This document shows positions 2,061 through 55,637 of a stretch of DNA of 64,000 nt, piece by piece. The notes under the pieces are model-generated. The model did no database searches. It saw only the letters and a program-made list of their open reading frames with translations, and was not told the origin of the DNA. Source of the stretch: Bdellovibrionales bacterium (GTDB lineage Bacteria; Bdellovibrionota; Bdellovibrionia; Bdellovibrionales; UBA840); NCBI GenBank assembly GCA_045110695.1, contig JBGCGH010000048.1, forward strand, positions 2,110 through 66,109. Direction: 5' to 3'. The position numbers and the translations under genes were made by a program. How positions within the stretch are numbered: position 1 is the stretch's first letter; the number at the start of each line of letters is the position of its first letter.

Positions 2061-3944
2061 TTGAAATCCCGAATAAAAACCAATATGAGGAAAGAGCCAA
2101 AAATAGCCAAACATATTAACAAGCAAAAAGCACAGAAGCGCTCAAAGCTTAAAGTGGTAGATAAGGCATTCCAAGAAGCTCAAAAAAAATATAAAAACTT
2201 TGATCAGTTAGATGGGAGCCACCCATGGCAGGAGCAAGTTCCCGAAGGCTACATTGGCTACAAAGTTTATAGGGTTGAAGATGCGCAAGTAGCCTATTTT
2301 AACTACGATTTGGCGAAAGAAATGGGCCTTATACCAAAAAATCATCCAAACAAGTTAAATGAGTTTCTAGAAGAAAAAATACTCGACGCCTTCGCGCTTA
2401 GAATAGTGAATGAATACGATCTCGAAAACGAAACAGAAGCACTTAACAAACAACATAAAGAAAATATTTTTATGGCAACGAGATATTTACAGCTTCAGCA
2501 TCCCAACAAACAAGGGAAAACCTCTGGAGACGGTAGAAGTATTTGGAATGGGTCCGTAAACGCCAAAGGCAGAGAGTGGGATGTTTCTTCCAGAGGAACG
2601 GGAGTGACTCGGTTAGCTCCAGGTGTTGTAGAGGCAGGGAAGTTCTTAGAGAGTGGTGGAGAGGATTTTGGATATGCCTGCGGAATGGCCGAAGTAGATG
2701 AGCTTTATGCCACTGCAATTATGTCAGAAGTGTTTCATAACCAAGGTATACCCACAGAACGAAGCTTATGTATAATTGAAACAACAGACAAGCTTGGTAT
2801 TGGAGTTAGAGCTGGCCAAAACTTACTTAGACCAGCTCACCTCTTTGCTTTTTTAAAACAAAGTAATGTTTCTGCTCTTGATAGGGCCCTACAATATCAT
2901 GTTGATAGACAAATTCAAAACAAGCGCTTTAAAGACAACGGCTCAAAATCAAAAAACTATAAGTATCTATTGGATCAAATTATTAATGATTATTCAAAAT
3001 TCGCCGCTCTTTTGGAGTCGGAATATATCTTCGCTTGGTTTGATTGGGACGGAGACAATATGTTGATGGACATTGGAATATTAGATTATGGTAGTATCCG
3101 CCAGTTTGGAATACGCCACGATGAGTACCGATATGATGATGTCACAAGATACTCAACAAACCTCAATGAACAGAAACAAAAAACACGAAAAATTGTTCAA
3201 ACTTTTTGTCAGTTATTTGATTTTTTAAGTACTGGCCAGAAGAAACCTATCGCTCACTTCTCCGAAAACAAGCAAATGAAAAAATTTGATTTGATTTTTG
3301 AAAGAGAGTTAGAGCTACTTTTTTTAGAAAAAATTGGATTAACTCGATCACAATCTGAGGATATATTTAAATCCAGTAAAAAAGAATTGAGTTCATGTTT
3401 TGAGGCCTATGCAGTTATCGAAAAAGCAAAGGCAAAAAACAAAAAAGAGGAAGTCTTTGACGGAGTAAATCGGCAGCCTCTTTATAACCCGAGGAAACTA
3501 CTAAGAATTTTAGCCGATCCTAATCAGAATTTTGAATTAGAAGAAATTTTTCAAAATATCTTAGCTGAAGATGTAGATCGATCTTCAGTCTTTAGTTCGT
3601 CAAGAAAAAAACAACTAGTTCATTTTATAGAAACTTATAATGATTTAATTTTGGTAGCCAATGGGAAGCGTGACCTTCACAAGAAGCAACATAAAAACTG
3701 CAACTTGGTAAATAGCCCAGAAAGACTTACTGGGAATTCTGTAACCTATATCGTAAATGAAATATTAGAAGCCCGAGATAAAAAACTAAAAGGCGAAGAA
3801 CTACAAAATTTTATTGATCTCTTTATCTACAACACCAGTAAGCCTTATAACAAAAGCCTTAAACCACCCAAGGAATCAAGAGTGGCGAAATCAACTGTTA
3901 AATCCATGCTAAAGATCGTCAATGAATTTAGCGAAGACATTTAA
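2061..3944 (+). CDS. SelO/YdiU-like protein adenylyltransferase (long, divergent form)
   Basis: Motifs resemble the SelO family: NYDLAKEMGLIP (N-terminal LA..LGL), SGDGRS (cf. LGDGRA), SRGTGVT, AIMSEVFHNQGIPTERSL (cf. SEAMHxLGIPTTRAL) and DGDNMLMDIGILDYGS (cf. HTDNMS..G.TIDYGP). It has about 150 extra C-terminal residues compared with E. coli YdiU. Confidence 0.55.
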   Translation: MKSRIKTNMRKEPKIAKHINKQKAQKRSKLKVVDKAFQEAQKKYKNFDQLDGSHPWQEQVPEGYIGYKVYRVEDAQVAYFNYDLAKEMGLIPKNHPNKLNEFLEEKILDAFALRIVNEYDLENETEALNKQHKENIFMATRYLQLQHPNKQGKTSGDGRSIWNGSVNAKGREWDVSSRGTGVTRLAPGVVEAGKFLESGGEDFGYACGMAEVDELYATAIMSEVFHNQGIPTERSLCIIETTDKLGIGVRAGQNLLRPAHLFAFLKQSNVSALDRALQYHVDRQIQNKRFKDNGSKSKNYKYLLDQIINDYSKFAALLESEYIFAWFDWDGDNMLMDIGILDYGSIRQFGIRHDEYRYDDVTRYSTNLNEQKQKTRKIVQTFCQLFDFLSTGQKKPIAHFSENKQMKKFDLIFERELELLFLEKIGLTRSQSEDIFKSSKKELSSCFEAYAVIEKAKAKNKKEEVFDGVNRQPLYNPRKLLRILADPNQNFELEEIFQNILAEDVDRSSVFSSSRKKQLVHFIETYNDLILVANGKRDLHKKQHKNCNLVNSPERLTGNSVTYIVNEILEARDKKLKGEELQNFIDLFIYNTSKPYNKSLKPPKESRVAKSTVKSMLKIVNEFSEDI

Positions 3945-5566: not shown

Positions 5567-8500
5567 TTATTTATCTCTGATTTCCCAATCACGATCAAAC
5601 CAAACAGGTCCGACCCCATTGTAAAATGAACACCAGGCACCAGGCACGGTTGTGAATTGATAACCAGTAGGATTATCAGACCAAGAGCCCCAGAAACCTG
5701 ATAGACCGCTTCTACCTTCTTCTGAGGCGGTCATATTACAGAAAGCCTGGCCTGAGGGGCTTGGACCCATTATCATTAGACTATAGGAAGTAGATCCTGC
5801 GGGACATGAAGCGCATCCGGTTCCAGAAGCTTTTACGGGACCTGGGCCTCCACAGTTCATGCCCTCACAACTGCATGTTCCTGCGCTGGAGCTCAAAGTT
5901 CCACTGTCATCTACTGCATAAACATGGATCAAATGTTCTAAATCGCCCGATAGGCCGCGACCACTACAGATGGTACCAAGATCACCGACCAAGTCAAATT
6001 GACTGTAGTTGAAACTATCACTTGGTAACGGTAGCGGAGAATAAGAAGCGTTTTGACCAGCTCTTACCTCTGTATCAGTGGTGAAATCTTCTTCACAATC
6101 TGCTAATCTAAAGGCTCTGTAGGTAATAGGGTCTCCATCTGGGTCTGTTGAGCCACTAGTTACACTAAATCCCATTGTAGTTCCATCTCCGGTACAACTG
6201 ATTGTAGGAGCCGTGGGAGGACTGTTAGGGGTAACCGAACAATTTAAGTTGGTACAACCACATTTGGCTGGACTTGCACTAACCCCGCCATTTCCATCTT
6301 CTGCGTAGATATTAATAAATGCGTCTAGAACTCCCGAGTAACCCGCCACAATACAATCTGCAGATTTGCCTAGATCTCCGAAGGCAACTCTATTGTAACT
6401 TGGGCTAGGTGATCCGCCATAAGAAGTATTTGGACCGCCCTCGATATATGAATCTGTAGTTAGGATCTCTGTACAATCAACGTTTCGATAAGCCCTGTAT
6501 GTAATTGTATCTCCATCAGGGTCGGTTGCAGGGGTAACTATACTAAAGCCCATTGTAGCTCCATCTCCGTTACAACTAACTACCGGAGTGGTTGGTGCTC
6601 CATTCACCGGCACTGTGTTACAGGCACAATCTAAGTTATAGGCCTCAGTTCCCATAATATTTCTTACACCGGGCCCTGGCAAAGAGTCTGGGTAACCGCG
6701 ACAACCAGGAGTAGCGGCAATCACAGGTGTGCTAAATGGAGCCCCTCCAAATAAGGTATCAAAATCAGTTTGATTAGAAATCCCCGTTAGATCCGTAATT
6801 CTATAACTATAGGTTGGAACTAAAGCTGGGTTTGTTTCCGTACTTAATAAAGTAAGAAACCAATCATTTGGTGGTAAACAAGTTGGACCAGCTGCCTGAC
6901 ATTGACAAGAAAAGCTAAAATCATTTCCACCAGCGCTACAATTAATTGTATTACCTACGATAGCAGAACCACAGGTACCAGCTGAACTATAGCCGTCTCC
7001 TGTCCCTAGAGGATAATCTCCCATGTTTAATCCGAAAGAACTACACTGAGCAAGCGCACCACTACCGCCTGTTAATGTACGATAGAAATTGGCATTTTCT
7101 CCGCCGGCGATATCACATGTAGGGGCTAAACATGCTCTTTGAGTCAGGGTTGGGGAAGGACCACCACCACCATCACATGAGAATAATTCTCCAGAACTTG
7201 GGTTATTAATTCTTAGAACAGTAAAACCCTCAGAGCCAGTACAAGAATTTCCCGCTGCTAAGCCCGGAGGGGCCAATAACATTACTCCGGAACAAAGCCC
7301 TACCGGATCATCTGAGTCTCCAAAAGCACAACAGCCTAAAGCATTGGTACAAGTTCCGATAGACTGCCAAGTGGATGCTCCGGCACTAGGTTTTTTGCAA
7401 TAAAGAGATCTACTATCTAAAGATGGGCATTCAAGACCAGAGGAATGAGCCCTTCCAGAACCTACCGGTTCACAATCGATTACAGGTCCGCCACCACAGG
7501 TATTATCATCTACATAAACCGGAGATCCGTTACTACACTCAAAGACATCAGTTGTTGCATCACATGTACATGGAGGATCGGAATCTGGTTGGAAACAATA
7601 GTTTACTGAACAGCTTCCACCTACAGAGACCGGGCCTCCATCGCCGTTTCCACTACAATCTCTGTACTGACACTGGTATTCATCATATAGAAAACATTCT
7701 TCATTTGGCACACAACCCGTCGGTGGGTTTAGGCCAGCAACAAAACTAGAAGCGATAACTCCAAAAACTTCCGGAGTGCTCGCGTCCGGATCAACAGGTC
7801 CACAGTCTATTCCAGCCGTAGAAGGATAAGATGTAAAATTTATACCTGCTCTAGGCGGTCCCCCAAGGTTTGCAAAATAATATTGTGGAGTTGCATTTCT
7901 TTCTAGTAATTTTTCTAGAGGATTACAAGTTCCACCACCTCCCAGGCTAGGAACACAAGTGTAAACCTCATTAGGTCCACCGGTATCACAACGAAGCGTC
8001 TGGGCAGAATCATTCAAACAATATTTGTCAGCATCTCGCCAATCACATCTAGATCCATTGGATTTATTTTCTCTTTCGTAGGTAACTGCTGTGCAGAGCC
8101 CTGGTGTAACACCCGTTGGAGCCGTTGCAGTCACCCACTCTCTCCCAACACACAAATTTGCCTGGCCCACTTCTGAAACCGTACAGGATTTATCCATAGC
8201 AAAACAGTCACCTTGGTTTCCAGAGCTCATACCGGTGCCCGCAGGAAAACTATACTCATAGGCAAACTCAGTGGCGTTGGCAGTACATAACTCACCAATT
8301 GCTGAGGTTACAGTAGCTAATATTGAATTTGAACCTGTTGTTGGTCCGTCCGTCGGCAAAATCTTACAAGAACTTTGTGGGCCACCAATATCCGCAGCTG
8401 GAAAACCAACTACATCTTTACATTCAGGTATCAAGCTAAGAGTTGAAGTCACCTCGGTATTTCCCAAGACTGGTCCGGTATGGCATTCGGCATCTACCGG

Positions 8501-11500
8501 CACTGGCGGTGGACCACCAGTACAAACCTCTCTATTCACACAACGACCAACATCAGCCAAAACTAAACAATTACAAACACCAGAGCCACAGAGTCCACCT
8601 GAAGAACAGCCTGGACCTGGAGCTAAGATGTCTCTTTCCGGCTCTCCATCTGTAAAATAATAATACCTTCCTAAGTCACAAGAAGATGCATCTACATCTT
8701 CCATGAAGGTAAACAATGGTACTACCGTACAAGACTGTGAAGGATAGTTAGCATTCCCTCCAGGAATTCCGCCAACCTGACAACTTGATGGTCTACCCGT
8801 TCCTGTCACTGGCTCAAATACCCTAGTATTGGTACAGGTTTGACCAATAGGATTTATTATCGGGCCTGGAGTGCCACAGTCACCGTTCTGTTGTCTTAGT
8901 CCATTGGAAGGTAAGCAATCTTCTAGAGTTGTTGTAGCATCTGCTATACATAAAGCAACAGCTGCATTGAGTTGATCGCCAGTATCCTCCGCGGTTACAT
9001 CGTATGGTCCAAAATTATATCCTGTAGGACAGTTGGTTGGACAGAATTTATCTACACCTGAAGGATATCCACCAGCAATGACTTCGCAAGTTGCTCCTCC
9101 ATTATCAGTACTACATACTGTAGAATCTAACCAACCAGGCCTTGCTGCCTCCATAGGATCACTACACCAAACAGGACAAAATTTAGCCACTGTAGGAGAA
9201 AAAGCGCAATCAGCGGCAGTAGGGTTAGACGCCAAACAGGATGCTACATCATCACCCGCTGGAGAACCATAAGCATCATCGCAAGTATTTAAAACTGGGC
9301 ACCAGACATCAACTGTATTCACTGTTTCTTCGGCGCAGGTTCCAACAGAATAAGCATCCAAGCACTCCGCTTCTGTGGCTGAGGGAATGTTTCCATTGGC
9401 ACAATTAAAGCTTGGACTAATACAAAGATTAGGACATGAAAGCGTTCCTGATGAACCTTGCCTCGTCGAAGTAGGCTGCTGACAGGTGTTGTACCTAAGT
9501 TCACAACCTGAGCTATCAGAAAAAGAAACAGAAGCTGAGTCATTGCCATAGGAATTACATGTCCAATTTCCAGGTGGAAACTCGTTACAAGTATTACATA
9601 TTAACCTACTTACATTTCCATCACCACTACAAGAATTTCCGTGGTCATTTGGATTAGCAAGATTACAACCAGAAACATCGGTTTGAGAATCATAAACATC
9701 TCGAACAAAATCAATGGGCACAGAAACAGTTGGATTATTCGGTATCCCTGCTAAAGAGCACTGCGGAGCCCCAACAGCATTTACAGTTCCGGTGGCGCTA
9801 TTATCTAAATCATCACAAGTGATTCTTTGAGAGGAGCCAGCATTACAACTGGCAGAGATCATATTATTAGAGCATCTAGAGTTATCACCAACCGATGGCT
9901 GCCAACAACTACAATTTGTTCTTCCGTCTCGACAGTCGTAAATTCCATTCACAACCGCAGTTCGATTCAAAGAGTTTACCCAATCAATTTCAGAAACGTT
10001 GGCACAAGTTCCTGCCCCAGCTCCACTTTTATCGCAAATTTCTCCGCCTCCACAATCCACTTCCCTACAATCATCTCGGTAAGCCGGGCTAGTAGTGTTC
10101 CCTTGTGCTTCCCCTCTAACTTCAAAGGTTGTATCACAGGGAACCGCATCATCGAACCTCTGACAGGCATCGATTGCGAGCATATTAACACCGGGATTGA
10201 TTCCTAAAGGACTACCGGCTGTTCTTTTACATGAGTTTGAGCCCGCTGCTCTTCCTAAGAACGCTGCTTCTTGATAACAGATACCTTCGGAACCGTTATT
10301 AAGAGTGTTATGAGGATCTAAAGTTTGATAGTCACCGGCTACGTGTAAAGACACAGGGCTGGCATTTAAATTTGCGCCGTACGCAGAATTGTATGCAAGA
10401 CAAATTTGTACATATGGTAGGTATTTACCATTAGGATAGTTTGCCGCGTCTTCCACACTAGAGTATCTACCGACTCTGTGAATATTATTATAGGTTGCTA
10501 TTCCAGAATTTAATGCACCAGAGGCTGCACTTACATCAGCTTCGTCAAGAATATCAAAACCCATCACTCCGCTTCTTTCCATAAAAGCGTAGGTTCCGCC
10601 ACCACCATTTTTATTTATATAAGGCTTCGGAGAGTGGGCAACCCTATCAGCAGGAGTTGAAATTGTGGGCTTCACACTTTTTGTCCAAGTTTCTACTTCG
10701 TCTCCGAAACGGTAACCACCACCACAAACATCACAAGCTCTGGCAGCCGCTGCATATTCTCCGTCACCGGCAGAACCAGCTGCGATAGTCAGGCCTCCAG
10801 AAGCTCCAACCACATCATCAAAATAGCCGGCAGGGTAATTCCCCCCATTTGCTACATCAGGATATGACAATCGAATTGGTCTTTCATTTACTCCATAGGA
10901 TCCGTTAGATTCCCCGTTTCTCAAGGCAAGAGTTTGGCAAGGTGATGTGTCTAACGCATCTGTATATTCAGTGGGGTCAATCTTAGTAGGGGAAAATGCC
11001 CATTTGAATCTCACGTCAGATAAATCAAATGTTTCTATTGGTCCATCAGCCGTCCAAACTACTTCATAATTTCCATTGGCAACACCAGCCGTTCCAGTAA
11101 CTGCTGGAGTATCTGAGCACTGATAGAAATTATTACCGAACTTCCGGCGAACACCGTCGTACCATAAAAGATTTGCTTTTGCTGAATCAGGGATACCCAT
11201 TTGACCAGCGACTTCACCGAAGTTTCCTACTGCGTTGTTGCCATTGTTATCTCTTGCAGTACCCCCACCACCTGGAGTAACACGTTGAATTCCATGGGGT
11301 CGAGTTACATCAACAGAAAACCGGTTTTCATAAAATATTTTACCATTCCTATTGGATATATTTCTGGCAGAATCAACCAACATCACAGAAAACCTAAAGT
11401 CTCCTTCAGGTAGACCAGTAAGTCTTAACTGGTAGTCTAGTGATCTGTTGGTAGTAAAATGGTCTAGGAAGTTATTATTATCAGCCATTGGCTCATCGTT

Positions 11501-13060
11501 TCCAGCATGCCACGGAATAACATTTACCGTAGCTCTACTTGCGTTATCCTGAACTTTTTCAACATAACTTGCTCTGAAAGCAGCTTCGTCGGCAAGGTTA
11601 ATAATTGCTGGATCTAAACCAATATTCCAATCCACTGGAACAGGGTCGCCGCTATCATCTTCTTGCATTAGAAAATTACAATGATACCAACCGGTATCCT
11701 CCGTATCGATGTTGAAGGCAGTCTTTCTTCCTAAATATTCTAGTCGGCAAAAAGGCGTACTATCTGCGTCGCTCAATGTAAAATGTATGTCTATAGGTGG
11801 TACAAACTCTTTGGTAGCAACATTGCCATCCAAGTCCACATAATCCGCAGCCCCTGCAACTTCATATACTCCGCCACAAATACCTGCGTTATTTTGTCCA
11901 CCTCTAGAAAAAGTATCGCTTGCCGCAGCCTCTACATCTGACCTTTTTTCGCCAATGTTAATACATATAAAATTATTATCTTCTGTTCCTATGCAAGGGT
12001 CAGGAGCAGCAGTAACATCACTTAATCGGGGGGTGACATTATCAATAGTGTGTGAATAGGAATTGTTAGCACCACAACTATACTCGTTACCTTGATCATT
12101 GGTGTAGGAAAGCCTTACATCTAGACTCAAAGAAAATGAGTTTTGAATCCTAACACCTTCTAAATTTCCAGCTACCACTTTTCCGCCAACAGCAATAGGA
12201 CCGAAATCTAAAGTTGTACCCGGAATAACGAGACCGCTATCATTTCCTACAAGCTCTCCAGGGTTTACATTCGATGGAATCGTATAAAGAAACCTATCGT
12301 TACCCAGATCTAAAGATCCATCCGTATCCGTATCCTCAGCAAGAGGCAGACAATCTTTATTCCCCTCCACCGTCATTCTTTGAATCCGGATCTCAACTTC
12401 TAAATTATCTAAACTTCCAGACACTGTATCTTGAAGACGGTCACCAAAATCTCTCCAAAATCCATCATCAATATCCAAGACCCCTGGTCCGTATACCTTT
12501 AAAAAGCCGTTACAAATCCCAGGGGACTGACTGTTGTAGTACCTATATAGGTTTGCAAATGCCGAGTCGATATACAGCCAAGAATTCACTCTTGAAGGTA
12601 GATCAACTAGAGATTGAACAAAAGGAAGCATGTCCCCTGCGGGATCGGGAGTCTGTCCGTTACCAGTGCTGTAAATGCCATCAACAACTGGGTTATATAA
12701 GCTATTAATTGGATCTATTGTTAAAGGGTCTTCATCCACATCTACAATTGGTAAATTTAAAAATTGATTCCCGTCAATATTAGTGTAGTTTCCACCTTCG
12801 TTATTTGCTGGGTCCCAATTGGGGTAAAGCTGGCTAGTGGTATAGGAATCTAGACGATCTCTTTCTTTAAACTCAGAAACAATATTATTTGCAATGGATT
12901 GGCATTGTGAGCTTTTGAAAATTCTAGTAGAGGTTCTGGCGTTTTGGGTTACATAGAACGTAATCGCCACCGCAGACGAAGCTACAATTCCGACAGCAAT
13001 CATCACCTCAGTGAGACTGACTCCCTTTTGATTATCCCATATATTTTTTAACGCTTTCAC
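5567..13060 (-). CDS. Giant (2,497 aa) cysteine-rich secreted protein with type IV prepilin-like N-terminus (candidate modular pilin/adhesin)
   Basis: Uninterrupted 7.5-kb ORF with a GTG start. The N-terminus MKALKNIWDNQKG|VSLTEVMIAVGIVASSAVAITFYV has Gly at -1, Glu at +5 and a hydrophobic helix. About 124 Cys by hand count. Two tandem domains of about 127 aa carry TDPDGDxITY. Confidence 0.8.
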   Translation of the reverse strand: MKALKNIWDNQKGVSLTEVMIAVGIVASSAVAITFYVTQNARTSTRIFKSSQCQSIANNIVSEFKERDRLDSYTTSQLYPNWDPANNEGGNYTNIDGNQFLNLPIVDVDEDPLTIDPINSLYNPVVDGIYSTGNGQTPDPAGDMLPFVQSLVDLPSRVNSWLYIDSAFANLYRYYNSQSPGICNGFLKVYGPGVLDIDDGFWRDFGDRLQDTVSGSLDNLEVEIRIQRMTVEGNKDCLPLAEDTDTDGSLDLGNDRFLYTIPSNVNPGELVGNDSGLVIPGTTLDFGPIAVGGKVVAGNLEGVRIQNSFSLSLDVRLSYTNDQGNEYSCGANNSYSHTIDNVTPRLSDVTAAPDPCIGTEDNNFICINIGEKRSDVEAAASDTFSRGGQNNAGICGGVYEVAGAADYVDLDGNVATKEFVPPIDIHFTLSDADSTPFCRLEYLGRKTAFNIDTEDTGWYHCNFLMQEDDSGDPVPVDWNIGLDPAIINLADEAAFRASYVEKVQDNASRATVNVIPWHAGNDEPMADNNNFLDHFTTNRSLDYQLRLTGLPEGDFRFSVMLVDSARNISNRNGKIFYENRFSVDVTRPHGIQRVTPGGGGTARDNNGNNAVGNFGEVAGQMGIPDSAKANLLWYDGVRRKFGNNFYQCSDTPAVTGTAGVANGNYEVVWTADGPIETFDLSDVRFKWAFSPTKIDPTEYTDALDTSPCQTLALRNGESNGSYGVNERPIRLSYPDVANGGNYPAGYFDDVVGASGGLTIAAGSAGDGEYAAAARACDVCGGGYRFGDEVETWTKSVKPTISTPADRVAHSPKPYINKNGGGGTYAFMERSGVMGFDILDEADVSAASGALNSGIATYNNIHRVGRYSSVEDAANYPNGKYLPYVQICLAYNSAYGANLNASPVSLHVAGDYQTLDPHNTLNNGSEGICYQEAAFLGRAAGSNSCKRTAGSPLGINPGVNMLAIDACQRFDDAVPCDTTFEVRGEAQGNTTSPAYRDDCREVDCGGGEICDKSGAGAGTCANVSEIDWVNSLNRTAVVNGIYDCRDGRTNCSCWQPSVGDNSRCSNNMISASCNAGSSQRITCDDLDNSATGTVNAVGAPQCSLAGIPNNPTVSVPIDFVRDVYDSQTDVSGCNLANPNDHGNSCSGDGNVSRLICNTCNEFPPGNWTCNSYGNDSASVSFSDSSGCELRYNTCQQPTSTRQGSSGTLSCPNLCISPSFNCANGNIPSATEAECLDAYSVGTCAEETVNTVDVWCPVLNTCDDAYGSPAGDDVASCLASNPTAADCAFSPTVAKFCPVWCSDPMEAARPGWLDSTVCSTDNGGATCEVIAGGYPSGVDKFCPTNCPTGYNFGPYDVTAEDTGDQLNAAVALCIADATTTLEDCLPSNGLRQQNGDCGTPGPIINPIGQTCTNTRVFEPVTGTGRPSSCQVGGIPGGNANYPSQSCTVVPLFTFMEDVDASSCDLGRYYYFTDGEPERDILAPGPGCSSGGLCGSGVCNCLVLADVGRCVNREVCTGGPPPVPVDAECHTGPVLGNTEVTSTLSLIPECKDVVGFPAADIGGPQSSCKILPTDGPTTGSNSILATVTSAIGELCTANATEFAYEYSFPAGTGMSSGNQGDCFAMDKSCTVSEVGQANLCVGREWVTATAPTGVTPGLCTAVTYERENKSNGSRCDWRDADKYCLNDSAQTLRCDTGGPNEVYTCVPSLGGGGTCNPLEKLLERNATPQYYFANLGGPPRAGINFTSYPSTAGIDCGPVDPDASTPEVFGVIASSFVAGLNPPTGCVPNEECFLYDEYQCQYRDCSGNGDGGPVSVGGSCSVNYCFQPDSDPPCTCDATTDVFECSNGSPVYVDDNTCGGGPVIDCEPVGSGRAHSSGLECPSLDSRSLYCKKPSAGASTWQSIGTCTNALGCCAFGDSDDPVGLCSGVMLLAPPGLAAGNSCTGSEGFTVLRINNPSSGELFSCDGGGGPSPTLTQRACLAPTCDIAGGENANFYRTLTGGSGALAQCSSFGLNMGDYPLGTGDGYSSAGTCGSAIVGNTINCSAGGNDFSFSCQCQAAGPTCLPPNDWFLTLLSTETNPALVPTYSYRITDLTGISNQTDFDTLFGGAPFSTPVIAATPGCRGYPDSLPGPGVRNIMGTEAYNLDCACNTVPVNGAPTTPVVSCNGDGATMGFSIVTPATDPDGDTITYRAYRNVDCTEILTTDSYIEGGPNTSYGGSPSPSYNRVAFGDLGKSADCIVAGYSGVLDAFINIYAEDGNGGVSASPAKCGCTNLNCSVTPNSPPTAPTISCTGDGTTMGFSVTSGSTDPDGDPITYRAFRLADCEEDFTTDTEVRAGQNASYSPLPLPSDSFNYSQFDLVGDLGTICSGRGLSGDLEHLIHVYAVDDSGTLSSSAGTCSCEGMNCGGPGPVKASGTGCASCPAGSTSYSLMIMGPSPSGQAFCNMTASEEGRSGLSGFWGSWSDNPTGYQFTTVPGAWCSFYNGVGPVWFDRDWEIRDK

Positions 13061-13271: not shown

Positions 13272-13300
13272 AAAAAAACCGAGCGGTAGCTCGGTTTTTT
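13272..13300 (-). terminator. Bidirectional-looking hairpin terminator downstream of 13331-13777
   Basis: AAAAAAACCGAGC-GGTA-GCTCGGTTTTTT: a 7-bp GC-rich stem flanked by an A-run and a T-run, about 30 nt after the stop of the minus-strand gene. It separates that gene from the giant ORF. Confidence 0.75.
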
Positions 13301-13330: not shown

Positions 13331-13777
13331 TTACTGAAAGTTTAAAACATCCATGGTGTAGGACAGTCTACCCTCATTTCTCCAGCAATTCGCACGCTTA
13401 TTCAAATTTCTAACAGTAAAAACATCTAAAACGCCGTCCATTACTTCTTCATAAAGACCACAGTTTTCTCTTCTTCTATTGTTTTTGAAATTTACCTCAA
13501 CCCAATCGGCATTATCACTATCGATACTAGGGGCAGCAACGCTCAGACGAATTCTTACGTCTTCAAAATAAGGTAAACCACCATTACATCTCAATTTAAC
13601 AATTTCTCCACCTAATGCTTTCACCACTTTTTCTGTAGCGTTCTCAACAGCGTCACAAGAAAAGTAGGTGTCGATCACTCGAACTGTAAATCTTGTTTCA
13701 GAAACTTCTGCCTTCAGGCCAACTACAAACATAAGCGGTGCTAAAAACCATAATAGTCTTCTCATAATATCCTCCAA
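13331..13777 (-). CDS. Hypothetical small secreted protein
   Basis: N-terminal signal-like segment MRRLLWFLAPLMFVVGLKA, four Cys, no motif I recognise. A terminator follows directly. Confidence 0.5.
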   Translation of the reverse strand: MEDIMRRLLWFLAPLMFVVGLKAEVSETRFTVRVIDTYFSCDAVENATEKVVKALGGEIVKLRCNGGLPYFEDVRIRLSVAAPSIDSDNADWVEVNFKNNRRRENCGLYEEVMDGVLDVFTVRNLNKRANCWRNEGRLSYTMDVLNFQ

Positions 13778-26268: not shown

Positions 26269-26847
26269 CTATCTTGAATGACGGAGGCCGAGGTATTGAT
26301 CTTGGCCTGTTTCGTTTAGGGTGCCTAGTAGGTTTTTAGGGATTTTGTTCCATTTTTTTTTGGCTAGGCGGGAAATTGTTAGCTTTATGCAGGGGCGTTG
26401 GAAGCGGTTTTCTTTGATGCATTGGAGGGGGCTGGAATCTACTTCGGCTGGTTTTAGGAGAGAGTCAAAAGAGATTTTTATAAATTCTCCTTTTCTAAGT
26501 TCTTTTGTTGGGGGCTTAGTCCATATAGATGAGCCATTGTTTTCTTGAAATCGATTTACACTAAAAGGCTTTTTGCCCTGTCGTTCTACTTCCTGATTGA
26601 AACCTGTGATGAATAGCTTTAAGAACTCCTTGTCTGGAGAATCTAATAAAACGATTTTTCTGTGAAGAAGTACCGGATACAATTGCCTGTAGCTGTACTT
26701 TCCGTATTCCTGCCAACTTACAAAGCCTGAGAGCTTTAAAAGACCTTTGAATTTTGGTTGAATTCCGTCTTTAAAAAGCAAGAAACTCAAACCACCAAAT
26801 ATTACTAGAAATCCTAGGCACATAGCCCATTTAAACGCTTTCGGCAT
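26269..26847 (-). CDS. Hypothetical membrane-anchored protein
   Basis: Single N-terminal hydrophobic span (WAMCLGFLVIFGGLSFLLF). Otherwise no motif. Confidence 0.45.
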   Translation of the reverse strand: MPKAFKWAMCLGFLVIFGGLSFLLFKDGIQPKFKGLLKLSGFVSWQEYGKYSYRQLYPVLLHRKIVLLDSPDKEFLKLFITGFNQEVERQGKKPFSVNRFQENNGSSIWTKPPTKELRKGEFIKISFDSLLKPAEVDSSPLQCIKENRFQRPCIKLTISRLAKKKWNKIPKNLLGTLNETGQDQYLGLRHSR

Positions 26848-27053: not shown

Positions 27054-27752
27054 ATGAAAAATAAAAACTTATTAGTGGTTGGCAATGGCCGGCTAGCTAC
27101 CAGTATACTACCCTACCTTTTATCCGTAGGACATGAAGTCGATCAGCTCGATCGAAAAACTCTTGAGAACCAATTAAAATTTGAAAAACACTATGATCTT
27201 GTAATAGTTTTAGTTTCAGATTCAGCTATATCAGATGTAGTTTCAAGTTTAAGAAAGCTAAACCCCTTTGAAAGTCAGTATCTCCATATGTCTGGAGCTC
27301 TCAATATAGAGGGTGTTTCATGTGTTCATCCTTGTATGAGCTTTGGGATAGAAGCATTGCCGGTTGAAAACTGGGACTCTATTCCATTTGCTGTTTTTGA
27401 TAAATCACTTAATCATTTTTTCCCTACAATGAATAACCCAGAACTACATATACCCGTGGAACACAAAGCGCTCTACCATGCGCTATGTGTTTGCGCTGCG
27501 AACTTACCACAAATTATATGGTCTGAAACTTTCAAAGAAGCAGAAAAAATACCAATGGACCCTAGTCTTTTTCTACCGCTAATTGATGCCAGCTTGAAAA
27601 ATTTATTTCGCTCTGGAGAAAAGGCTCTAACAGGTCCCATTCATAGAAAAGATGAAAACACGATGAAATCCAACTTAAATTCCATTGAATCCACCCTGTT
27701 GAAATCGACCTACCAACATCTTAAAAACACTTATCAGGATAGAACTTTATGA
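27054..27752 (+). CDS. Rossmann-fold NAD(P) oxidoreductase, DUF2520-type (candidate ketopantoate reductase)
   Basis: N-terminal LLVVGNGRLATSILPYL dinucleotide-binding fold and C-terminal HKALYHALCVCAANLPQII resembling DUF2520. The stop overlaps the panB start (ATGA). Confidence 0.5.
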   Translation: MKNKNLLVVGNGRLATSILPYLLSVGHEVDQLDRKTLENQLKFEKHYDLVIVLVSDSAISDVVSSLRKLNPFESQYLHMSGALNIEGVSCVHPCMSFGIEALPVENWDSIPFAVFDKSLNHFFPTMNNPELHIPVEHKALYHALCVCAANLPQIIWSETFKEAEKIPMDPSLFLPLIDASLKNLFRSGEKALTGPIHRKDENTMKSNLNSIESTLLKSTYQHLKNTYQDRTL

Positions 27753-28534
27753 ACAAATTAGATTTTGTTAAAAAGAAGCAATCAGGAGTAAAGATCAGTA
27801 TGATTACATGCTATGATTACTCCTTTGCTAAAATTGTAGATAGCACGGATCTGGACTGTATTCTGATCGGTGATAGCCTGGCCATGGTAATGCATGGCTA
27901 TGACAGCACAGTACATGCTACTATTGAACTTATGAGTCTACACACCGAGGCTGTAAGAAGAGGAACAAATAAGTTTCTTGTTTCTGATATGCCATTTATG
28001 TCCAATAGAAAAGGAGTGGAGTTCGCCTCAACATGTGCAGAAACTTTAATGAGAGCTGGTGCTAATTCCGTAAAAATTGAAGGAGCTGAGGGCAATCTTG
28101 ATATAATACGACACTTAGTTGGGTCTGGAATACCAGTCATGGGACACCTAGGTCTTACGCCACAAAGTGTTAACGAGCTTGGTGGCTTTAGGGTTCAAGC
28201 AAAGACAGACTTAGCAAAAGAAAAGTTATTAAAGGATTCATTAGCTCTTGAGAAAGCGGGTTGCTTCGCTTTAGTACTAGAATGCGTTCCAAGTGACATC
28301 GCCAAAACAGTTTCTGAGAGCCTTAGTATTCCTACCATTGGAATCGGTGCTGGCTCTGACTGCGATGGACAGGTACTTGTTCTCCAAGATATTTTGGGTT
28401 TGAATACCGATTTTAAACCTAAATTTGTAAGAAACTATGAAAGCTATGCAGCAAGTACAAAATTGAGCTTTAACCTCTTTCATAAAGATATTCAAACTGG
28501 CGGCTTTCCTAACTCAGAAGAGAGCTTCCTATGA
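27749..28534 (+). CDS. panB: 3-methyl-2-oxobutanoate hydroxymethyltransferase
   Basis: [34 protein letters not shown] and GHLGLTPQS are typical of PanB. 4-nt overlaps on both sides. Confidence 0.9.
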
Positions 28535-29283
28535 TTATTGCTAAAAACCCAAAAAAGCTAAGCCAAATACTTTTAAATCAGACTACTGAGATTGGTTTTG
28601 TGCCAACTATGGGTGCTCTCCATGAAGGACATATGTCTTTGGTCAGAAAAGCAAAAGAAGAAAACCAATTGGTAGTCGTAAGTATATTTTTGAACCCCAC
28701 GCAGTTTGATCAGAGCTCTGATCTAGATGGGTATCCAAGTAGTATTGAAAAAGACATTGAACTACTCAAAAATGAAGGTGTGGATATCCTTTTTACACCA
28801 ACATTCGATGATATTTATCCAGATAGCTTTACGTTCAAAATGGTAGAAACGAACTTAAGTAATAAATTGTGTGGTTCCCACAGACCCGGACACTTTGATG
28901 GTGTGCTAACAGTAGTTTTAAAACTTTTCAATATTGTAAAACCTAAGCGAGCTTACTTTGGTGAAAAAGATTTTCAGCAATTAGTTTTAATAAAAAACAT
29001 GGTGGAAGCTCTCTTTCTTGATATTGAAATTGTAGCCTGCCCTATTGTTCGGGAATCCTCTGGCCTCGCTATGAGCTCGAGAAATCGCAAGCTAAACCCT
29101 GAGTCTTTTGAAGCAGCATCAAATATACATAGAATAATTAAATCCAAAGAGCCAAGCACAAATATTAAAAGCAAACTTGAGCAACTAGGTTTAGCAGTTG
29201 AGTATTTGGAAGACATTGACTCCCGGAGATTCGTTGCTGCAAAGATCAATAATGTGAGGTTAATCGATAATGTCTCCATCTAA
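28531..29283 (+). CDS. panC: Pantoate--beta-alanine ligase
   Basis: [17 protein letters not shown] (HIGH-like motif), [15 protein letters not shown] and SSRN. Confidence 0.9.
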
Positions 29284-29818
29284 TTCTGATAATATTTTAC
29301 TAATGGTATCTGGATCTATCGCGGCCTATAAAAGCCTAATTCTCCTATCTCAATTGAGACAAGAAGGCCATGAGGTTAAAGTTGCCGTGACTAATTCCGC
29401 TTTGAAGTTTATTGGGCAAGCTAGCTTTGAGGGCCTGAGTTCTAATAAAGTTTACGCTGATGAATATGAATCTGGCCACCTAATGGATCATATTCACTTA
29501 ATGAATTGGGCGGATAAGATTATCCTATACCCGGCTTCGGCCAATAGTATAAATAGTTTTGCAAATGGTATTGTGTCTAATAGCCTGGGAAGTCTGTTTT
29601 TGGCCTTTGACTTTAAAAAGCCCTTTTTCATTGCGCCGGCAATGAATTCTAAAATGTGGAACCACCCGAGCACAAAAAGAAGTGTGAAGGATTTAGAGGC
29701 TTGGGGAATCAAATTCATTCCACCGGAAGATGGTCAACTGGCTTGTGGTGAAATTGGATCTGGAAGATTATGTAGTCCTGAAAGAACAAAAGATATCCTG
29801 CTCGGACTAAAGCGATGA
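29270..29818 (+). CDS. coaC: Phosphopantothenoylcysteine decarboxylase (stand-alone flavoprotein)
   Basis: [29 protein letters not shown] and CGEIGSGRL match the N-terminal half of Dfp/CoaBC. 14-nt overlap with panC. Confidence 0.8.
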
Positions 29819-30474
29819 AAGTTCTAATTACAGCCGGTGGCACGGAAGAGAAAATTGATCATGTAAGAAGTATCACTAATTCGAGTACAGGAAATACTGG
29901 ATTAGCCATTGCCGAACACTTTGCTGAAAATGGAGCTTCGGTAGATTTACTTCTCAATAGTGCGGGTATAGCATCACATAGATCTATATCAACCTTTGCC
30001 TTTACATCCTTTGAGGATCTCGAATCGTTAATTCACGAAAGGCTTAATATAACTAGGTATGATTTTATAATTCACTCGGCGGCGGTTTCAGATTTCAAAT
30101 GCTCTGGAATTTCAATGGATAAAGTTAATTTCTATGAAGCAGACAAAATCACCTCCAGCTCCGATGTCTATTTAAAACTCACGCCCAGGAAAAAAATCAT
30201 TAATTCCTTAAAAAGGCTCCAGCCAAACAGCACATTAATTGGGTTTAAATTCACAGCATCAAATTCGGAAGATGAAAACTCCAGGGCTATTGGAAAGCTA
30301 TTTAAAAACTCAAACTGTGACTTCGTTGTTCACAATTCAGCCTTAACAAAAAAAAGTGCTCATGAGCATCCCATTGAAATTTATGATAGAGATTTTAATA
30401 TAGTAGCAAAAACAAATGGTACCAAAAACATTGCGAGTAAAATATTCGATTTAACCAAGGTAGCTAAACTATGA
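29815..30474 (+). CDS. coaB: Phosphopantothenate--cysteine ligase (stand-alone)
   Basis: [28 protein letters not shown] and AAVSDF match the C-terminal half of Dfp/CoaBC. 4-nt overlaps on both sides. Confidence 0.75.
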   Translation: MKVLITAGGTEEKIDHVRSITNSSTGNTGLAIAEHFAENGASVDLLLNSAGIASHRSISTFAFTSFEDLESLIHERLNITRYDFIIHSAAVSDFKCSGISMDKVNFYEADKITSSSDVYLKLTPRKKIINSLKRLQPNSTLIGFKFTASNSEDENSRAIGKLFKNSNCDFVVHNSALTKKSAHEHPIEIYDRDFNIVAKTNGTKNIASKIFDLTKVAKL

Positions 30475-31241
30475 TCCTATGTCTTGATGTTGGCAATACA
30501 CAGATTTTTGGTGGTGTCTTTAATGATAAAGAGCTGATTTTTAAATTCAGATATACCTCTGAGAAAACTTCTAGCTCTGATCAAATTGGAATTTTCTTAA
30601 AGAACGTTTTATCAGAAAATAAAATAGACCCTAATGATATTGCTAAAATAGCAATTTGTAGTGTGGTACCTCAAAGTGTTTATAGTATTCGTAGTGCCTG
30701 TATTAAGTACTTTGGTATTCAAGCATTTATATTGGAGGCTGGAGTAAAAACTGGCTTAAAGATTAAATATAAAAACCCGAGCGAAGTTGGCGCCGATCGA
30801 ATATCAAACGCGGTAGCTGCGAAAACTGCTTATCCAGATACAAATTTAATCATAGCCGATTTTGGTACAGCTACGACTTTCTGTGCAATATCTAAAAATG
30901 CCGAGTATCTAGGTGGAGTCATCCTCCCAGGACTAAGATTATCCATGGAAGCCCTTGAATCAAAAACTGCAAAGCTTCCCAGTGTAGAGATAATTAGAAC
31001 CCAAGATTTAGTGGGTAGAACCACAGTAGAGAGTATTCAAAGTGGTCTTTATTACGGCCATCTATTTTCAGTAATGGGAATCATTCAAAAGATAAAAGAA
31101 GAAAAGTTTAAAAATGAGAATTGTCTAGTTATTGGTACTGGAGGATTCTCTGTGTTGTATGAAAATACCGGAGTTTTTGACCAGATTGATTCAGACCTAG
31201 TCTTACGTGGACTACAAGAATCTCATCAATTAAATGTTTAG
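30471..31241 (+). CDS. coaX: Type III pantothenate kinase
   Basis: LCLDVGNTQIFGGVF, GADRISN, ADFGTATTF and IGTGG are typical of CoaX. Confidence 0.9.
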   Translation: MILCLDVGNTQIFGGVFNDKELIFKFRYTSEKTSSSDQIGIFLKNVLSENKIDPNDIAKIAICSVVPQSVYSIRSACIKYFGIQAFILEAGVKTGLKIKYKNPSEVGADRISNAVAAKTAYPDTNLIIADFGTATTFCAISKNAEYLGGVILPGLRLSMEALESKTAKLPSVEIIRTQDLVGRTTVESIQSGLYYGHLFSVMGIIQKIKEEKFKNENCLVIGTGGFSVLYENTGVFDQIDSDLVLRGLQESHQLNV

Positions 31242-31249
31242 GAGAAAGA

Positions 31250-31621
31250 ATGCAAATTCAAATGTTAAAATCTAAAATACATAGAGCGACCGTCACAGAT
31301 GCAGATTTAAACTACGAGGGCTCAGTTTCTATAGACCCTAGATTCTGCGAAGCCGCAAAGCTACATAAGTTTGAAAAAGTGGAAATTTATAATTGTAACA
31401 ATGGTGCTAGGTTTGCAACCTATGTTATCCATGGCAATGAAAATGAGATCTGTCTAAATGGTGCAGCAGCAAGACATGTTCACAAAGGAGATAAAGTTAT
31501 AATTTGTTCCTATGCCAGATTGGATGAGTCAGAGGCCATAAAACATAGCGCCAGGCTAGTACTAATGGGTGACGATAATATTATAAATGAAGTAACTGAC
31601 GCAGCAGTTTCTGGTGACTAA
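31250..31621 (+). CDS. panD: Aspartate 1-decarboxylase
   Basis: MLKSKIHRATVTDADLNYEGSVSID contains the Gly-Ser self-processing site. Length 123 aa. Confidence 0.92.
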   Translation: MQIQMLKSKIHRATVTDADLNYEGSVSIDPRFCEAAKLHKFEKVEIYNCNNGARFATYVIHGNENEICLNGAAARHVHKGDKVIICSYARLDESEAIKHSARLVLMGDDNIINEVTDAAVSGD

Positions 31622-53772: not shown

Positions 53773-54609
53773 GTGAAAGTTATTTTAATGGCACTAGTTG
53801 CAACAGCTATTACAGGATCGTTGCAGGCCGAAGAAAAAGATTTATGTGATCCTAACCAAGCCAATGCTGCGATTGCGGTTGAGCTGGAAGCATCAAGAGC
53901 AGCTATGACCGGTACAGAGATCAATATTGAAAACATTGAAACTGCTGCAAATCAGTTAAATAAAACTGAGGAAATTATTAATACTGTTCTTACACGTTAC
54001 GGGCAAGAATATGTTATCGGTGGAATTGGTTACGTAGCCGGCGCTAAAACCCCTGAATTTATTCCTAGAACACGTGTAGATTTATTGCCTGTAGGGGCGA
54101 TGCTTTTTATTGATAAAACAGCTAACCTTTGCGACCCACCTGTATCTATGAGACTAATGGCTGAAGCTGGTTTCCGTGCAAGACTTTTAAGTAAGGTTTC
54201 AAAAGATGGAGAAACTGCACTAAAGACAATAGCTAAAGGATTTAGAATTTTGTTGGTTCCTACGAATTGGAAATTTCAAGCCGACAGCTTTCAACAACTA
54301 GATTCCATGTCTGGAAACTATGCGTCTATTGGAGCAAATTTACAGTTCAAAGGAAACGCACAATTAATTAACGCTGCGGTGTTTGCTAAAGTAGACCAAA
54401 TTCATACTTTAGATTCTCCTTTGATCGTCGAGTTTGGAAAAATTTCTGGTGAGCAATCGATGAAACGTACTGTAAATGCTGGTGTTAGAAGAGTTCAGTT
54501 CTATACTCCTGGTGAGGCCTTGGACGCTGCAATTTTTGTTAGAGATTTAGTATCTGGCGCATCTTCCTCTGAAGAAGAAGCCGCTGCTACACCTTCTGAG
54601 ATTCAGTAG
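53773..54609 (+). CDS. Hypothetical secreted protein
   Basis: GTG start with AAGGAG upstream, signal peptide MKVILMALVATAITGSLQA, acidic low-complexity C-terminus (SSSEEEAAATPSE). Confidence 0.5.
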   Translation: MKVILMALVATAITGSLQAEEKDLCDPNQANAAIAVELEASRAAMTGTEINIENIETAANQLNKTEEIINTVLTRYGQEYVIGGIGYVAGAKTPEFIPRTRVDLLPVGAMLFIDKTANLCDPPVSMRLMAEAGFRARLLSKVSKDGETALKTIAKGFRILLVPTNWKFQADSFQQLDSMSGNYASIGANLQFKGNAQLINAAVFAKVDQIHTLDSPLIVEFGKISGEQSMKRTVNAGVRRVQFYTPGEALDAAIFVRDLVSGASSSEEEAAATPSEIQ

Positions 54610-54617
54610 TATTTTTT

Positions 54618-55637
54618 ATGAAATCCTTAATATGCATCTTTTTAGTTTTCCTGCAGCTTGATTTAGCTGCAGGAATTGATGCATGTAGGATAGAGTACAT
54701 CAGAAGTTCTATAAAAACGAAATCGCCTGATAAGGACTTTCAGGCGAGTATCCTAAGATCTTATAATCTCAGCTTCACTAAAATGAGATTCCTAAATCAG
54801 AAAAGCCAGAAAATTTTATCAAAACAACTACATGAATCCCTTTTAGCCGGCGAAAAGAAAAAGTCAGAAGAATTATTGTTTCAAATCTTTGCGGAACTAA
54901 GAAATCAGGTTGCCAACGAAAGCCCTGGATCTCTTCGCTTTAAAACAAGGGCCCTTATCGACTCCTTCTCGAGCTTGAGACAGCAATGGAGAAGTGAAGC
55001 CACTAAAGATATTTTACCAAGATCAATTGCGACGATTAGGGAATTGTTTCAATTAGCATTAATTTCAAGTCATGGAATTTCAGTTAAAAACTTGAAGATC
55101 ATGGAAAGAGAGTTGAATTTAATCGCTACTGAACTAGGTTTAATCAAAACTCATTCAGCCTACTCAAAAGACTCTATTTTCTTTATGCCTTTTAATTTCC
55201 TATTTGATGCTTTGAATAGAATCATTAGATCCTCAATCATGCTAAGAACTGATTTACAGGCCGGCGAGCAAATTATTATTTCAAATATTTATATTAAAAG
55301 TATAACGAGAGCTATCACCGATCACATGGCTCTACTGACACGCCTAGGTTACGCTTCCATTTTAATTTATGTAATTGCTAATCCGATTCAAACCTATCAT
55401 TCTTTAAAAGAAGGGACTAAATATCTAGATATAGAATTTTTAGTTGGGTTTTATAATAATGCCAAAAATTTAGATCAAAAGAAAGTTCACCATAACGAGA
55501 GCTTAATCCAACAAGAATATCGAATCCTTCATGAGGACCTAGTTTCCATAAGTAAAACTAGGGAACTTACCAAGGAAGAAAAAAGCAGACTTGAGCTTGC
55601 TCAGACAATTTTAAACCTAAAAATCGAAACTAAATGA
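54618..55637 (+). CDS. Hypothetical secreted, mostly alpha-helical protein
   Basis: Starts 8 nt after the previous gene. Signal-like MKSLICIFLVFLQLDLAAG. No motif. Confidence 0.5.
   Translation: MKSLICIFLVFLQLDLAAGIDACRIEYIRSSIKTKSPDKDFQASILRSYNLSFTKMRFLNQKSQKILSKQLHESLLAGEKKKSEELLFQIFAELRNQVANESPGSLRFKTRALIDSFSSLRQQWRSEATKDILPRSIATIRELFQLALISSHGISVKNLKIMERELNLIATELGLIKTHSAYSKDSIFFMPFNFLFDALNRIIRSSIMLRTDLQAGEQIIISNIYIKSITRAITDHMALLTRLGYASILIYVIANPIQTYHSLKEGTKYLDIEFLVGFYNNAKNLDQKKVHHNESLIQQEYRILHEDLVSISKTRELTKEEKSRLELAQTILNLKIETK

Follow-up and report, generated by a model that had tools for sequence, protein, structure and literature searches.

A giant cysteine-rich Bdellovibrionales protein with a prepilin-like N-terminus as a candidate modular pilin

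Modular pilins, in which non-pilin modules are grafted onto a class III signal peptide and the alpha1N helix, are widespread (PMC8179133). Streptococcus sanguinis PilB (50.5 kDa) and PilC belong to this group, and in the survey of IPR012902 by Raynaud et al. (2021, PMC8179133) the architectures included Ig-like (immunoglobulin-like) PKD (PF18911) and Big_9 (PF17963) domains, exposure at the pilus tip was proposed, and the extreme example had 860 amino acids (aa). The Kil pili of Myxococcus carry interchangeable tips of large, disulfide-rich minor pilins that set the prey range, and analogous tips have been predicted in Bdellovibrio (PMC12075869). B. bacteriovorus has three type IV filament systems, including a type IVa pilus (T4aP) plus a system for type II secretion (T2SS), and its lone tadG is reported as the gene of a pilus tip protein (bioRxiv 10.64898/2026.07.08.737194). 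Here, we describe a gene from a stretch of 64,000 nucleotides of a Bdellovibrionales bacterium (assembly GCA_045110695.1, contig JBGCGH010000048.1), referred to below as the window. The gene lies at window positions 5567..13060 on the minus strand and encodes 2,497 aa followed by a stop codon; its product is called the giant protein in the following. We favour the reading that it is a giant modular type-IV-pilin-like protein that serves a type IV filament system as a minor pilin or pseudopilin, and we give this about an even chance. As such it would probably be an oversized pilus-tip adhesin.

The open reading frame (ORF) starts at GTG, which is the earliest start codon downstream of an in-frame TAA, and it is uninterrupted; inspection of the upstream sequence found no GGAG-like Shine-Dalgarno sequence before the GTG. 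The uninterrupted frame with its GTG start and the lack of an obvious Shine-Dalgarno sequence had been pointed out in an earlier note on this DNA, written from the sequence alone, and both were confirmed. A frame of 7.5 kb at about 40% GC cannot be chance. The translation exactly matches NCBI MFK8138714.1 (AB8E15_10175), which is annotated as a hypothetical protein and comes from a metagenome-assembled genome (MAG) of Bdellovibrionales. After removal of a predicted 13-residue leader, the mature protein would have 2,484 aa, a mass of 259.8 kDa and a pI of 4.15. The cysteine (Cys) residues number exactly 124, of which 13 lie before residue 880 and 111 after it, in agreement with the estimate of about 124, nearly all past about residue 880, made earlier by hand. 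Hydropathy analysis found one membrane-type hydrophobic segment in the whole protein, at residues 13-40. The roughly 2,450 residues past the helix must lie outside the cytoplasm, and the giant protein is predicted to be single-pass, with its N-terminus inside and its C-terminus outside; it is strongly acidic, dense in Cys and equipped with Ig-like elements of adhesin type.

The evidence for a pilin-like protein begins at the N-terminus, which reads MKALKNIWDNQKG|VSLTEVMIAVGIV... with the predicted cleavage site marked by the bar. The predicted leader peptide (residues 1-13, MKALKNIWDNQKG; 13022..13060, minus strand) is short and basic, with three Lys, and ends in Gly13 at position -1. Residues 14-40 (VSLTEVMIAVGIVASSAVAITFYVTQN; 12941..13021, minus strand) were identified from hydropathy and hidden Markov models (HMMs) as the sole hydrophobic helix, equivalent to alpha1N, with Glu18 at +5; about 20 hydrophobic residues continue past this Glu, as can be seen in the longer stretch MKALKNIWDNQKG|VSLTEVMIAVGIVASSAVAITFYV. 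A short basic leader ending in Gly, Glu at +5 and a hydrophobic run of this length are the features of a class III signal, and the architecture that had been noticed in the first 40 residues therefore holds. The earlier note had also proposed an hmmsearch with N_methyl (PF07963) and TIGR02532, which have curated cut-offs of 21.2 and 16.3 bits, respectively. The outcome was mixed, as the scores were borderline and varied with the length of the fragment. N_methyl matched residues 9/10-33 with 16.5 bits in the full-length protein, 19.6 bits in a 300-aa fragment and 22.0 bits in a 90-aa fragment, while TIGR02532 gave 13.5 bits at full length and 16.7 bits in the 300-aa fragment, so that both cut-offs were reached on fragments and neither was reached by the whole protein. 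The other weak NCBIfam matches of the N-terminal fragment were all to pilins or pseudopilins (PilV, GspI, ComGE and prepilin peptidase-dependent pilin).

As the scores of the giant protein alone are borderline, the decisive support for its N-terminus comes from its homologues. These were searched for with phmmer, using residues 1-900 against all 1.84 billion representative proteins, and apart from the query only four weak matches were obtained, all of them distant homologues of the first ~600 residues. They are P0004 (548 aa) on a TARA Oceans scaffold, P0005 (505 aa) on contig Ga0490024_017425 of JGI metagenome 3300045398 (L001), P0006 (291 aa, truncated by the contig end) from an Oligoflexia MAG (MCC6278856.1) and P0007 (260 aa) on contig L004; the known sources of the family are thus an Oligoflexia MAG and the present Bdellovibrionales MAG. 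All four share an N-terminal pattern, (G/A)-x-S-L-x-(E/Q), which is followed by hydrophobic residues. It reads HSG|FSLVEILIAVALVG in P0005, which passes both N_methyl (27.7 bits) and TIGR02532 (23.3 bits), SKG|LGISEAMLAM in P0006, QKA|ASLIQVMLAAG in P0007 and NNRA|HSLIEVMIATA in P0004, where the true N-terminus is located upstream of the called start. N_methyl was matched by four of the five family N-termini. When a profile of the five was compared with the PDB, Geobacter PilA-N was found twice at the top (E 2.6e-4 and 1.6e-3), followed in order of rank by archaellin, PilA, archaellin, PilA, a fimbrial protein and archaellin; unrelated proteins appeared only from E 1.4 upward. We therefore consider it likely that the giant protein has a class III (prepilin) N-terminus. 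An internal start at the ATG of codon 20 was considered as well and rejected, because residues 9-19 upstream of it are conserved in the homologues at the protein level, which favours the GTG start.

The likeness to these relatives extends beyond the helix. Family-shared positions include C53, a Cys about 40 residues past the predicted cleavage site, and a W...N...C block (W161, N176 and C183), and the motif LPEGxYRLSVxxVDSARNxS...VDxxRP near residues 550-590 is common to those homologues that are long enough to contain it. A conserved base of about 600 aa is shared with the pilin-like relatives. In contig L001, only one TAA (1878-1880) closes the frame of P0005, which is otherwise open to the end of the contig, with 889 codons in all. 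The part past the TAA comprises another 383 codons and is Cys-rich, co-linear with the giant protein and without a signal peptide of its own; two separate genes seem less likely here than a pseudogene, an error in sequencing or a site of read-through. HMMER aligned domains of the L001 frame with residues 9-81, 128-188, 544-596 and 745-783 of the giant protein, and in a local alignment of the post-stop part with residues 942-1242 (z = 5.1) the score was reached by 0 of 200 composition-preserving shuffles. The junction between the pilin-like base and the Cys-rich extension is supported by this recurrence on an independent contig. With about 570 aa, P0004 is complete and has a short tail rich in Cys, so the size of the family members ranges from ~570 to 2,497 aa. 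On L004, a frameshift at a run of five T (GCTTTTTAGCAGCAG, 2490-2500) lies past the P0007 frame and is followed by sequence homologous to residues ~310-470 of the giant protein; one extra T at this run restores a long frame, and the independent Logan contig L005 ends (934) exactly there. This break may be an assembly problem or a slippage-prone site, and the interruptions in the homologues could in general be due to sequencing error, decay or recoding. The giant protein is a member of a tiny, fast-evolving family whose members keep the pilin-like base and differ in the length of the Cys-rich extension.

Further relatives were sought in several other ways. A word-indexed protein search with the full length returned only the giant protein itself, with the C-terminal 358 aa it returned only two PKD-repeat proteins, both with the motif DPDGDPITY, and with the family alignment it returned nothing, missing even the family's own members. 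For a protein of such low complexity and fast evolution these negatives are weak, as the search has a prefilter of 8000 candidates and missed the entry of the query itself for the C-terminal fragment and the family alignment. Relatives and conserved synteny across genomes, which the earlier note had suggested looking for, were not found by GTDB pattern scans with the giant protein and with its FAD-dependent neighbour, nor were relatives found by two JGI metagenome scans; these negatives are also weak, the tblastn confirmation being too strict for a fast-evolving family and having missed the JGI contig of P0005.

Behind the helix, the giant protein can be divided into several regions (all on the minus strand). 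The family-conserved N-terminal module (residues 41-640; 11141..12940), shared with P0004-P0007, is Cys-poor and has no Pfam match. Within it, residues 540-600 (LPEGDFRFSVMLVDSARNIS...VDVTRP; 11261..11443) carry an Ig-like strand motif of PKD/BIg type, for which profile A6 matched in the PDB the PKD domains of KIAA0319L, in the F-G strand region (E 1.9e-4), and the BIg domain 2yn3 of Salmonella SiiE (E 6e-4). A Gly-rich region with only 4 Cys (residues 641-880; 10421..11140) is weakly co-linear with the L001 homologue. The Cys-rich core (residues 881-2140; 6641..10420) contains 93 Cys, or 7.4% compared with a mean of 0.97% in 20 other proteins of the window, with a median Cys-Cys spacing of 11. 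Of the core, only the first ~300 residues (942-1242) could be aligned, their counterpart being the Cys-rich part past the stop on L001. No internal repeats, no Pfam match even in 300-aa segments and no PDB match were found for the core, and a plasmid tblastn search with it returned no relative. Taken more widely, residues ~600-2140 have no Pfam or PDB relatives, and the L001 stretch is their only sequence relative.

The core is followed by two tandem copies of a domain of about 130 aa, at residues 2142-2274 (6239..6637), with the motif TDPDGDTITY, and at residues 2275-2403 (5852..6238; counted from residue 2271 as a repeat unit), which are ~50-55% identical and represent the sole internal repeat of the giant protein (2142-2403). 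Both begin with PxxPxxSCxGDGxTMGFS...TDPDGDxITY. Their Pfam matches (Sde0182_C, Big_9 and Cadherin_4) were sub-threshold, hhalign gave a probability of 89% with K319L-like PKD repeats over 22 columns only, and a weak match to the PKD-like domain of PDB 4xed was obtained. From these matches, the tandem DPDGD domains are probably Ca-binding Ig-like beta-sandwiches. The C-terminal domain (residues 2404-2497; 5570..5851) is rich in Gly and aromatic residues (13 F/W/Y in 94) and has 4 Cys; no hydrophobic anchor, recognisable sorting signal or family match was found in these 94 residues.

The Pfam search of the rest of the protein that had been proposed in the earlier note was therefore productive in part: Ig-like, sub-threshold matches were obtained in the tandem domains, whereas ten overlapping 300-aa segments gave nothing for residues 245-2196, and neither the Ig-like motif nor the DPDGD pair reached the Pfam gathering score. 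A match to Glyco_hydro_48 (E 0.03-0.19), covering 81-83 residues of a 619-position model, was dismissed as chance. In the PDB, neither the whole protein nor profile A3 gave a sequence match past the N-terminal helix. The modelling of parts of the protein, also suggested earlier, did not give a usable fold. AlphaFold2 with an alignment of 5 sequences placed helices at 16-48 and 51-74 of residues 1-650, followed by strands, with an unreliable predicted local distance difference test score (pLDDT) of 39; for residues 2130-2497, modelled from a single sequence, the pLDDT was 34 and the model unusable. As judged from these searches, both the ~600-aa base and the 1,260-aa Cys-rich core are outside any described family.

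If the giant protein works as a pilin, a mechanism can be drawn from what is known of type IV filaments (reviewed in PMC10191384 and PMC8179133). It would insert into the inner membrane, keeping its N-terminus on the cytoplasmic side and the remainder outside, the leader would be cut off after Gly13 by a prepilin peptidase, and the large exported C-terminal part would be oxidised in the periplasm, forming as many as ~60 disulfides. Through its alpha1N helix, which carries Glu5, the protein could then dock with the helix bundle of either a pilus or a pseudopilus. Because such a subunit would be far too bulky for the body of the filament, it could only be among the first to be assembled, which would expose it at the tip. 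The ~600-aa family module with its Ig-like domain would be the base, the non-repetitive 1,260-aa Cys-rich core a rigid, disulfide-stapled stalk or body, and the two DPDGD Ig-like domains together with the aromatic-rich C-terminal domain the distal binding end for attachment to prey or surfaces. Incorporation into a filament and a role in adhesion are what we infer from this arrangement. The Ig-like elements, which are typical of surface adhesins, can be counted in favour of it.

In its way of working, the giant protein would be most like a modular minor pilin of the PilB/PilC type or a tip pilin of the KilN/TadG type. It has what defines a modular pilin according to Raynaud et al. (2021), as a prepilin motif (borderline) is combined with the Ig-like motif at 540-600 and the DPDGD pair at 2142-2403, and the modular-pilin architecture put forward in the earlier note, a pilin-like N-terminus with grafted non-pilin regions, fits. 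Its claim that the protein is larger than known pilins by an order of magnitude is correct for ordinary pilins of 120-200 aa but not for the 860-aa modular pilin (PMC8179133), compared with which the giant protein, with 2,497 aa and 260 kDa, is only ~3 times as large. Unlike in modular pilins, the grafted part is mostly non-repetitive, Cys-rich and without a protein signature. Unlike PilB and PilC, the giant protein has a host that is presumably diderm, so passage through a secretin would be needed, and a gene outside a pil locus. The KilN/TadG tip pilins of Tad (Kil) systems (Herrou et al. 2025, PMC12075869) are also large, with a variable distal domain and many predicted disulfides; candidates for such tip complexes have been described from predators including Bdellovibrio, with a proposed role in prey contact. 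Genes of the TadG/KilN type usually lie beside tadE/tadF-like genes. The location as a lone gene has a precedent there, in the tadG of B. bacteriovorus (bioRxiv 10.64898/2026.07.08.737194). However, the giant protein differs from KilN/TadG in that its N-terminus is of the N_methyl (GFxxxE) type, no kilL/kilM-like or pilin-like genes are adjacent and it is much larger; no TadE/TadG match (PF07811, PF13400) was found by Pfam at E <= 1 for the full length and E <= 0.5 for segments, and no vWA signature.

Other systems share fewer features with the giant protein. The type IVa tip adhesins PilY1/PilC are likewise very large, Ca-binding and non-repetitive, and are proposed to act at the pilus tip in adhesion. 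However, PilY1 is not a pilin and carries no class III signal; its defining feature is a beta-propeller at the C-terminus (IPR008707 / PF05567), which was not matched by the whole giant protein or by its overlapping 300-aa segments in Pfam. CofB and TcpB of type IVb pili and GspK of the T2SS are about 300-520 aa long, encoded in their own pilus operons and, unlike the giant protein, not rich in Cys. They also combine a pilin module with extra domains that databases miss, and they are tip proteins that initiate assembly (PMC8179133). Giant adhesins with Ig repeats such as Salmonella SiiE are similar in size class, in acidity and in having Ig-like domains with a D-x-A-G-N strand motif (2yn3), but their sequences are highly repetitive and a C-terminal signal directs their export by type I secretion, whereas the giant protein is non-repetitive and Cys-rich with an N-terminal signal of prepilin type; of the features of SiiE and LapA, a single tandem pair was found, and Pfam gave no RTX or haemolysin-type Ca-binding matches. 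The giants of putatively predatory Omnitrophota encoded beside T2SS-like loci (bioRxiv 10.1101/2023.11.21.568195) are also very large and poorly annotated, and have been proposed to serve prey adhesion in connection with type II/IV filament-like machinery. In Omnitrophota, the class III signals are on small neighbouring genes and not on the giants, which are at least ten-fold larger and have identifiable domains, and no sequence similarity between them and the giant protein was found.

Several observations weigh against a subunit of a type IV filament. At the N-terminus, the full-length scores under both curated cut-offs are joined by Val, rather than Phe or Met, at position +1 of the giant protein. 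In the four homologues, position -1 is G, G, A and A, i.e. Ala, which is rare at this position in class III signals, in two of the four, and +5 is Glu in four of the five family members and Gln in one, this last homologue also having Ala at -1. The AlphaFold2 model of residues 1-650 is too unreliable to show a pilin fold past the helix, in which an alpha1 helix of ~50 residues packs on an antiparallel beta-sheet. With regard to genomic context, Pfam scans covered 50 ORFs of the 64-kb window, including, with six exceptions, every non-nested ORF with a length of 110 aa or more, and none belongs to a pil, gsp or tad family. This confirms the earlier statement that the gene stands apart from such genes, and prepilin peptidase, ATPase, platform and secretin genes are equally absent. 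No pilus genes were found within 10 kb on either side of the homologue on contig L002, and none in the short flanks of the other homologue contigs (0.9-7.6 kb). Passage through a secretin would be a physical problem for a disulfide-locked protein of 260 kDa, which to our knowledge is larger than any cargo known to pass a secretin of the PilQ/GspD type. Finally, the gene is known from one assembly, the assembled sequence is interrupted in two of the four homologues, in one by the stop and in the other by the frameshift, and the family may be decaying. In a rival explanation, the pilin-like N-terminus, whether processed by a prepilin peptidase or not, is only a membrane anchor or export signal and the protein is never polymerised. 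It would then be a giant protein that is tethered to the inner membrane and periplasmic or envelope-spanning, or that is released, comparable to non-pilin proteins with class III signals such as archaeal sugar-binding proteins. This explanation agrees with everything shown, including the prepilin motif as the sole pilin feature demonstrated, the lack of nearby pilus genes and the difficulty of passing a secretin. We consider it possible but rather unlikely, mainly because of the conserved Glu5 and the Ig-like and DPDGD domains, which are typical of surface-exposed adhesins. Glu at +5 is dispensable for cleavage and important for filament assembly.

The same N-terminus could also be a classical signal peptide, possibly cut at AVA|IT after residue 32, with the giant protein being an ordinary Sec-dependent secreted or surface protein whose likeness to prepilins is a coincidence. 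The n-region is basic, the core is hydrophobic and there is an A-x-A motif, and the full-length HMM scores below the cut-offs agree with this. However, a charged Glu within the hydrophobic core is atypical of Sec signal peptides, (G/A)xSLxE is conserved across the family whereas the AVA|IT site is not, pilins and archaellins lead the PDB matches of the family profile and the fragment scans reach both curated cut-offs, which makes this explanation improbable. Another concern is the integrity of the ORF, which might not be functional as it stands, either as a misassembled or chimeric MAG sequence or as a gene of a decaying family. The protein forms a singleton cluster present on one 68-kb contig, scans of GTDB genomes and JGI metagenomes gave no independent copy, and the interruptions in half of the homologues point the same way. 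On the other hand, the 7.5-kb frame is uninterrupted and, apart from the diverged tandem domain, there are no repeats that could mislead an assembler. A chimera at the boundary of the base and the Cys-rich region is argued against by the co-linear recurrence of this junction on the unrelated contig L001. The synonymous codon fractions of the gene correlate with those of 16 neighbouring genes at 0.97, and GC content at third codon positions (GC3) is 0.29 compared with 0.34 in the neighbours and even along the gene. Because of this host-like and even synonymous usage, the gene is native to the contig and without a compositional seam. Its elevated GC, uniform along the gene, stems from second codon positions (GC2), through a composition rich in Gly, Ala, Pro, Ser, Thr and Cys, and recent horizontal transfer as the cause of the higher GC was rejected, as GC3 and codon usage are host-like. 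A non-functional ORF is therefore very unlikely. As to signs of phase variation, no long homopolymers or simple repeats were found within the ORF.

We still prefer to read the giant protein as a minor pilin or pseudopilin belonging to a type IV filament. A more specific proposal would be that the giant protein is the founding intact member of a group of 'mega-pilins' restricted to Bdellovibrionota, in which a conserved, pilin-like base of ~600 aa carries a non-repetitive, fast-evolving module of up to 1,900 residues with ~60 disulfides, brought through the secretin on the tip of a type IV filament for the recognition of prey. In its entirety this is tentative, and we hold it to be rather unlikely.

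The gene is separated from its upstream neighbour by a strong and significant intrinsic-terminator hairpin with A/T runs on both sides (13272..13300, minus strand; -16.1 kcal/mol, z = -6.4), which had already been recognised in the earlier note. The hairpin terminates the upstream gene, of 148 aa, and sets the 5' boundary of the transcription unit of the giant gene. The idea that the gene is monocistronic is therefore half supported, by its 5' end; at its 3' end, the stop codon is followed by a T8 run without a significant stem (z = -0.02) and the next gene on the same strand, for a FAD-dependent protein with its ATG at 5479, begins 88 nt downstream. The 148-aa upstream neighbour (13331-13777, minus strand) seems to carry a Sec signal peptide (MRRLLWFLAPLMFVVGLKA); its predicted mature part has four Cys, and Pfam gave no match. 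Rfam searches of the whole window and the 5' region of the giant gene found no riboswitch or other element, only sub-threshold matches driven by terminators. Further N-termini of prepilin type were found neither in any of the six frames of the window, by a regular expression including a relaxed version, nor at the homologue loci.

By Pfam, the neighbours of the giant gene in the window are housekeeping genes. They include an OPT transporter, a SelO-like protein, an epimerase, SpoU and TrmO methyltransferases, RibD, HPPD, a PIF1-type helicase, a 5'-nucleotidase, a pantothenate/CoA cluster and LeuRS, and two PLD-like genes and a DEAD/ResIII helicase are also present. The pantothenate/CoA cluster (27054-31621, plus strand) is compact, with the order DUF2520, ketopantoate hydroxymethyltransferase, pantoate-beta-alanine ligase, Flavoprotein, DFP, type III pantothenate kinase and aspartate decarboxylase. 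Flavoprotein and DFP are two distinct ORFs here; in many bacteria they are fused as CoaBC. The PLD-like genes (56658-60177, minus strand) are adjacent paralogues of 585 and 554 aa with two PLD-like (PLDc_2) domains each. An ORF of 627 aa (2061-3944, plus strand) has only a weak SelO match (31 bits). The stretch in which it lies differs from its surroundings by a lower GC (0.368) and a strong AT skew (+0.19). No Pfam match at E <= 1e-5 was obtained for five ORFs of 192-339 aa, at 53773-56534 and 25652-26847. At the homologue loci, Peptidase_S8 (subtilisin-type) genes (L002:14168-15589 and L003:5280-6572) are located less than 3 kb from two of the four homologues, directly upstream in the case of P0006. 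No S8 match was obtained among the scanned window ORFs around the giant gene, and the proximity to the homologues may be a coincidence if subtilisin-type proteases are common in genomes of this kind.

To summarise, the concept of the modular pilin is established already; what is new here is the scale, the non-repetitive, disulfide-dense module and the tiny family. The scale is ~3 times that of the 860-aa example in the literature searched (PMC8179133), and no size record is claimed. The value of the finding is limited by its source, a single MAG contig with no cultured host and four very distant homologues, two of them broken. More than 1,500 residues of the giant protein have no detectable relative among billions of proteins and can be regarded as sequence 'dark matter'. 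Type IV filaments gain functions through special tip subunits, and how large and complex such a subunit may be is a question of mechanism, as it has to get through the secretin and fold and must still be able to prime assembly. With a prepilin N-terminus that is likely genuine, a disulfide-dense protein of 260 kDa would put this to an extreme test. If the proposal of 'mega-pilins' is true, the giant protein would be ~3 times as large as the largest modular pilin in the literature searched, and the size limit of display on type IV filaments would have to be rethought. For the Bdellovibrionota, pili are needed for attachment to prey and for invasion, and the giant protein may be one of the molecules that recognise prey.

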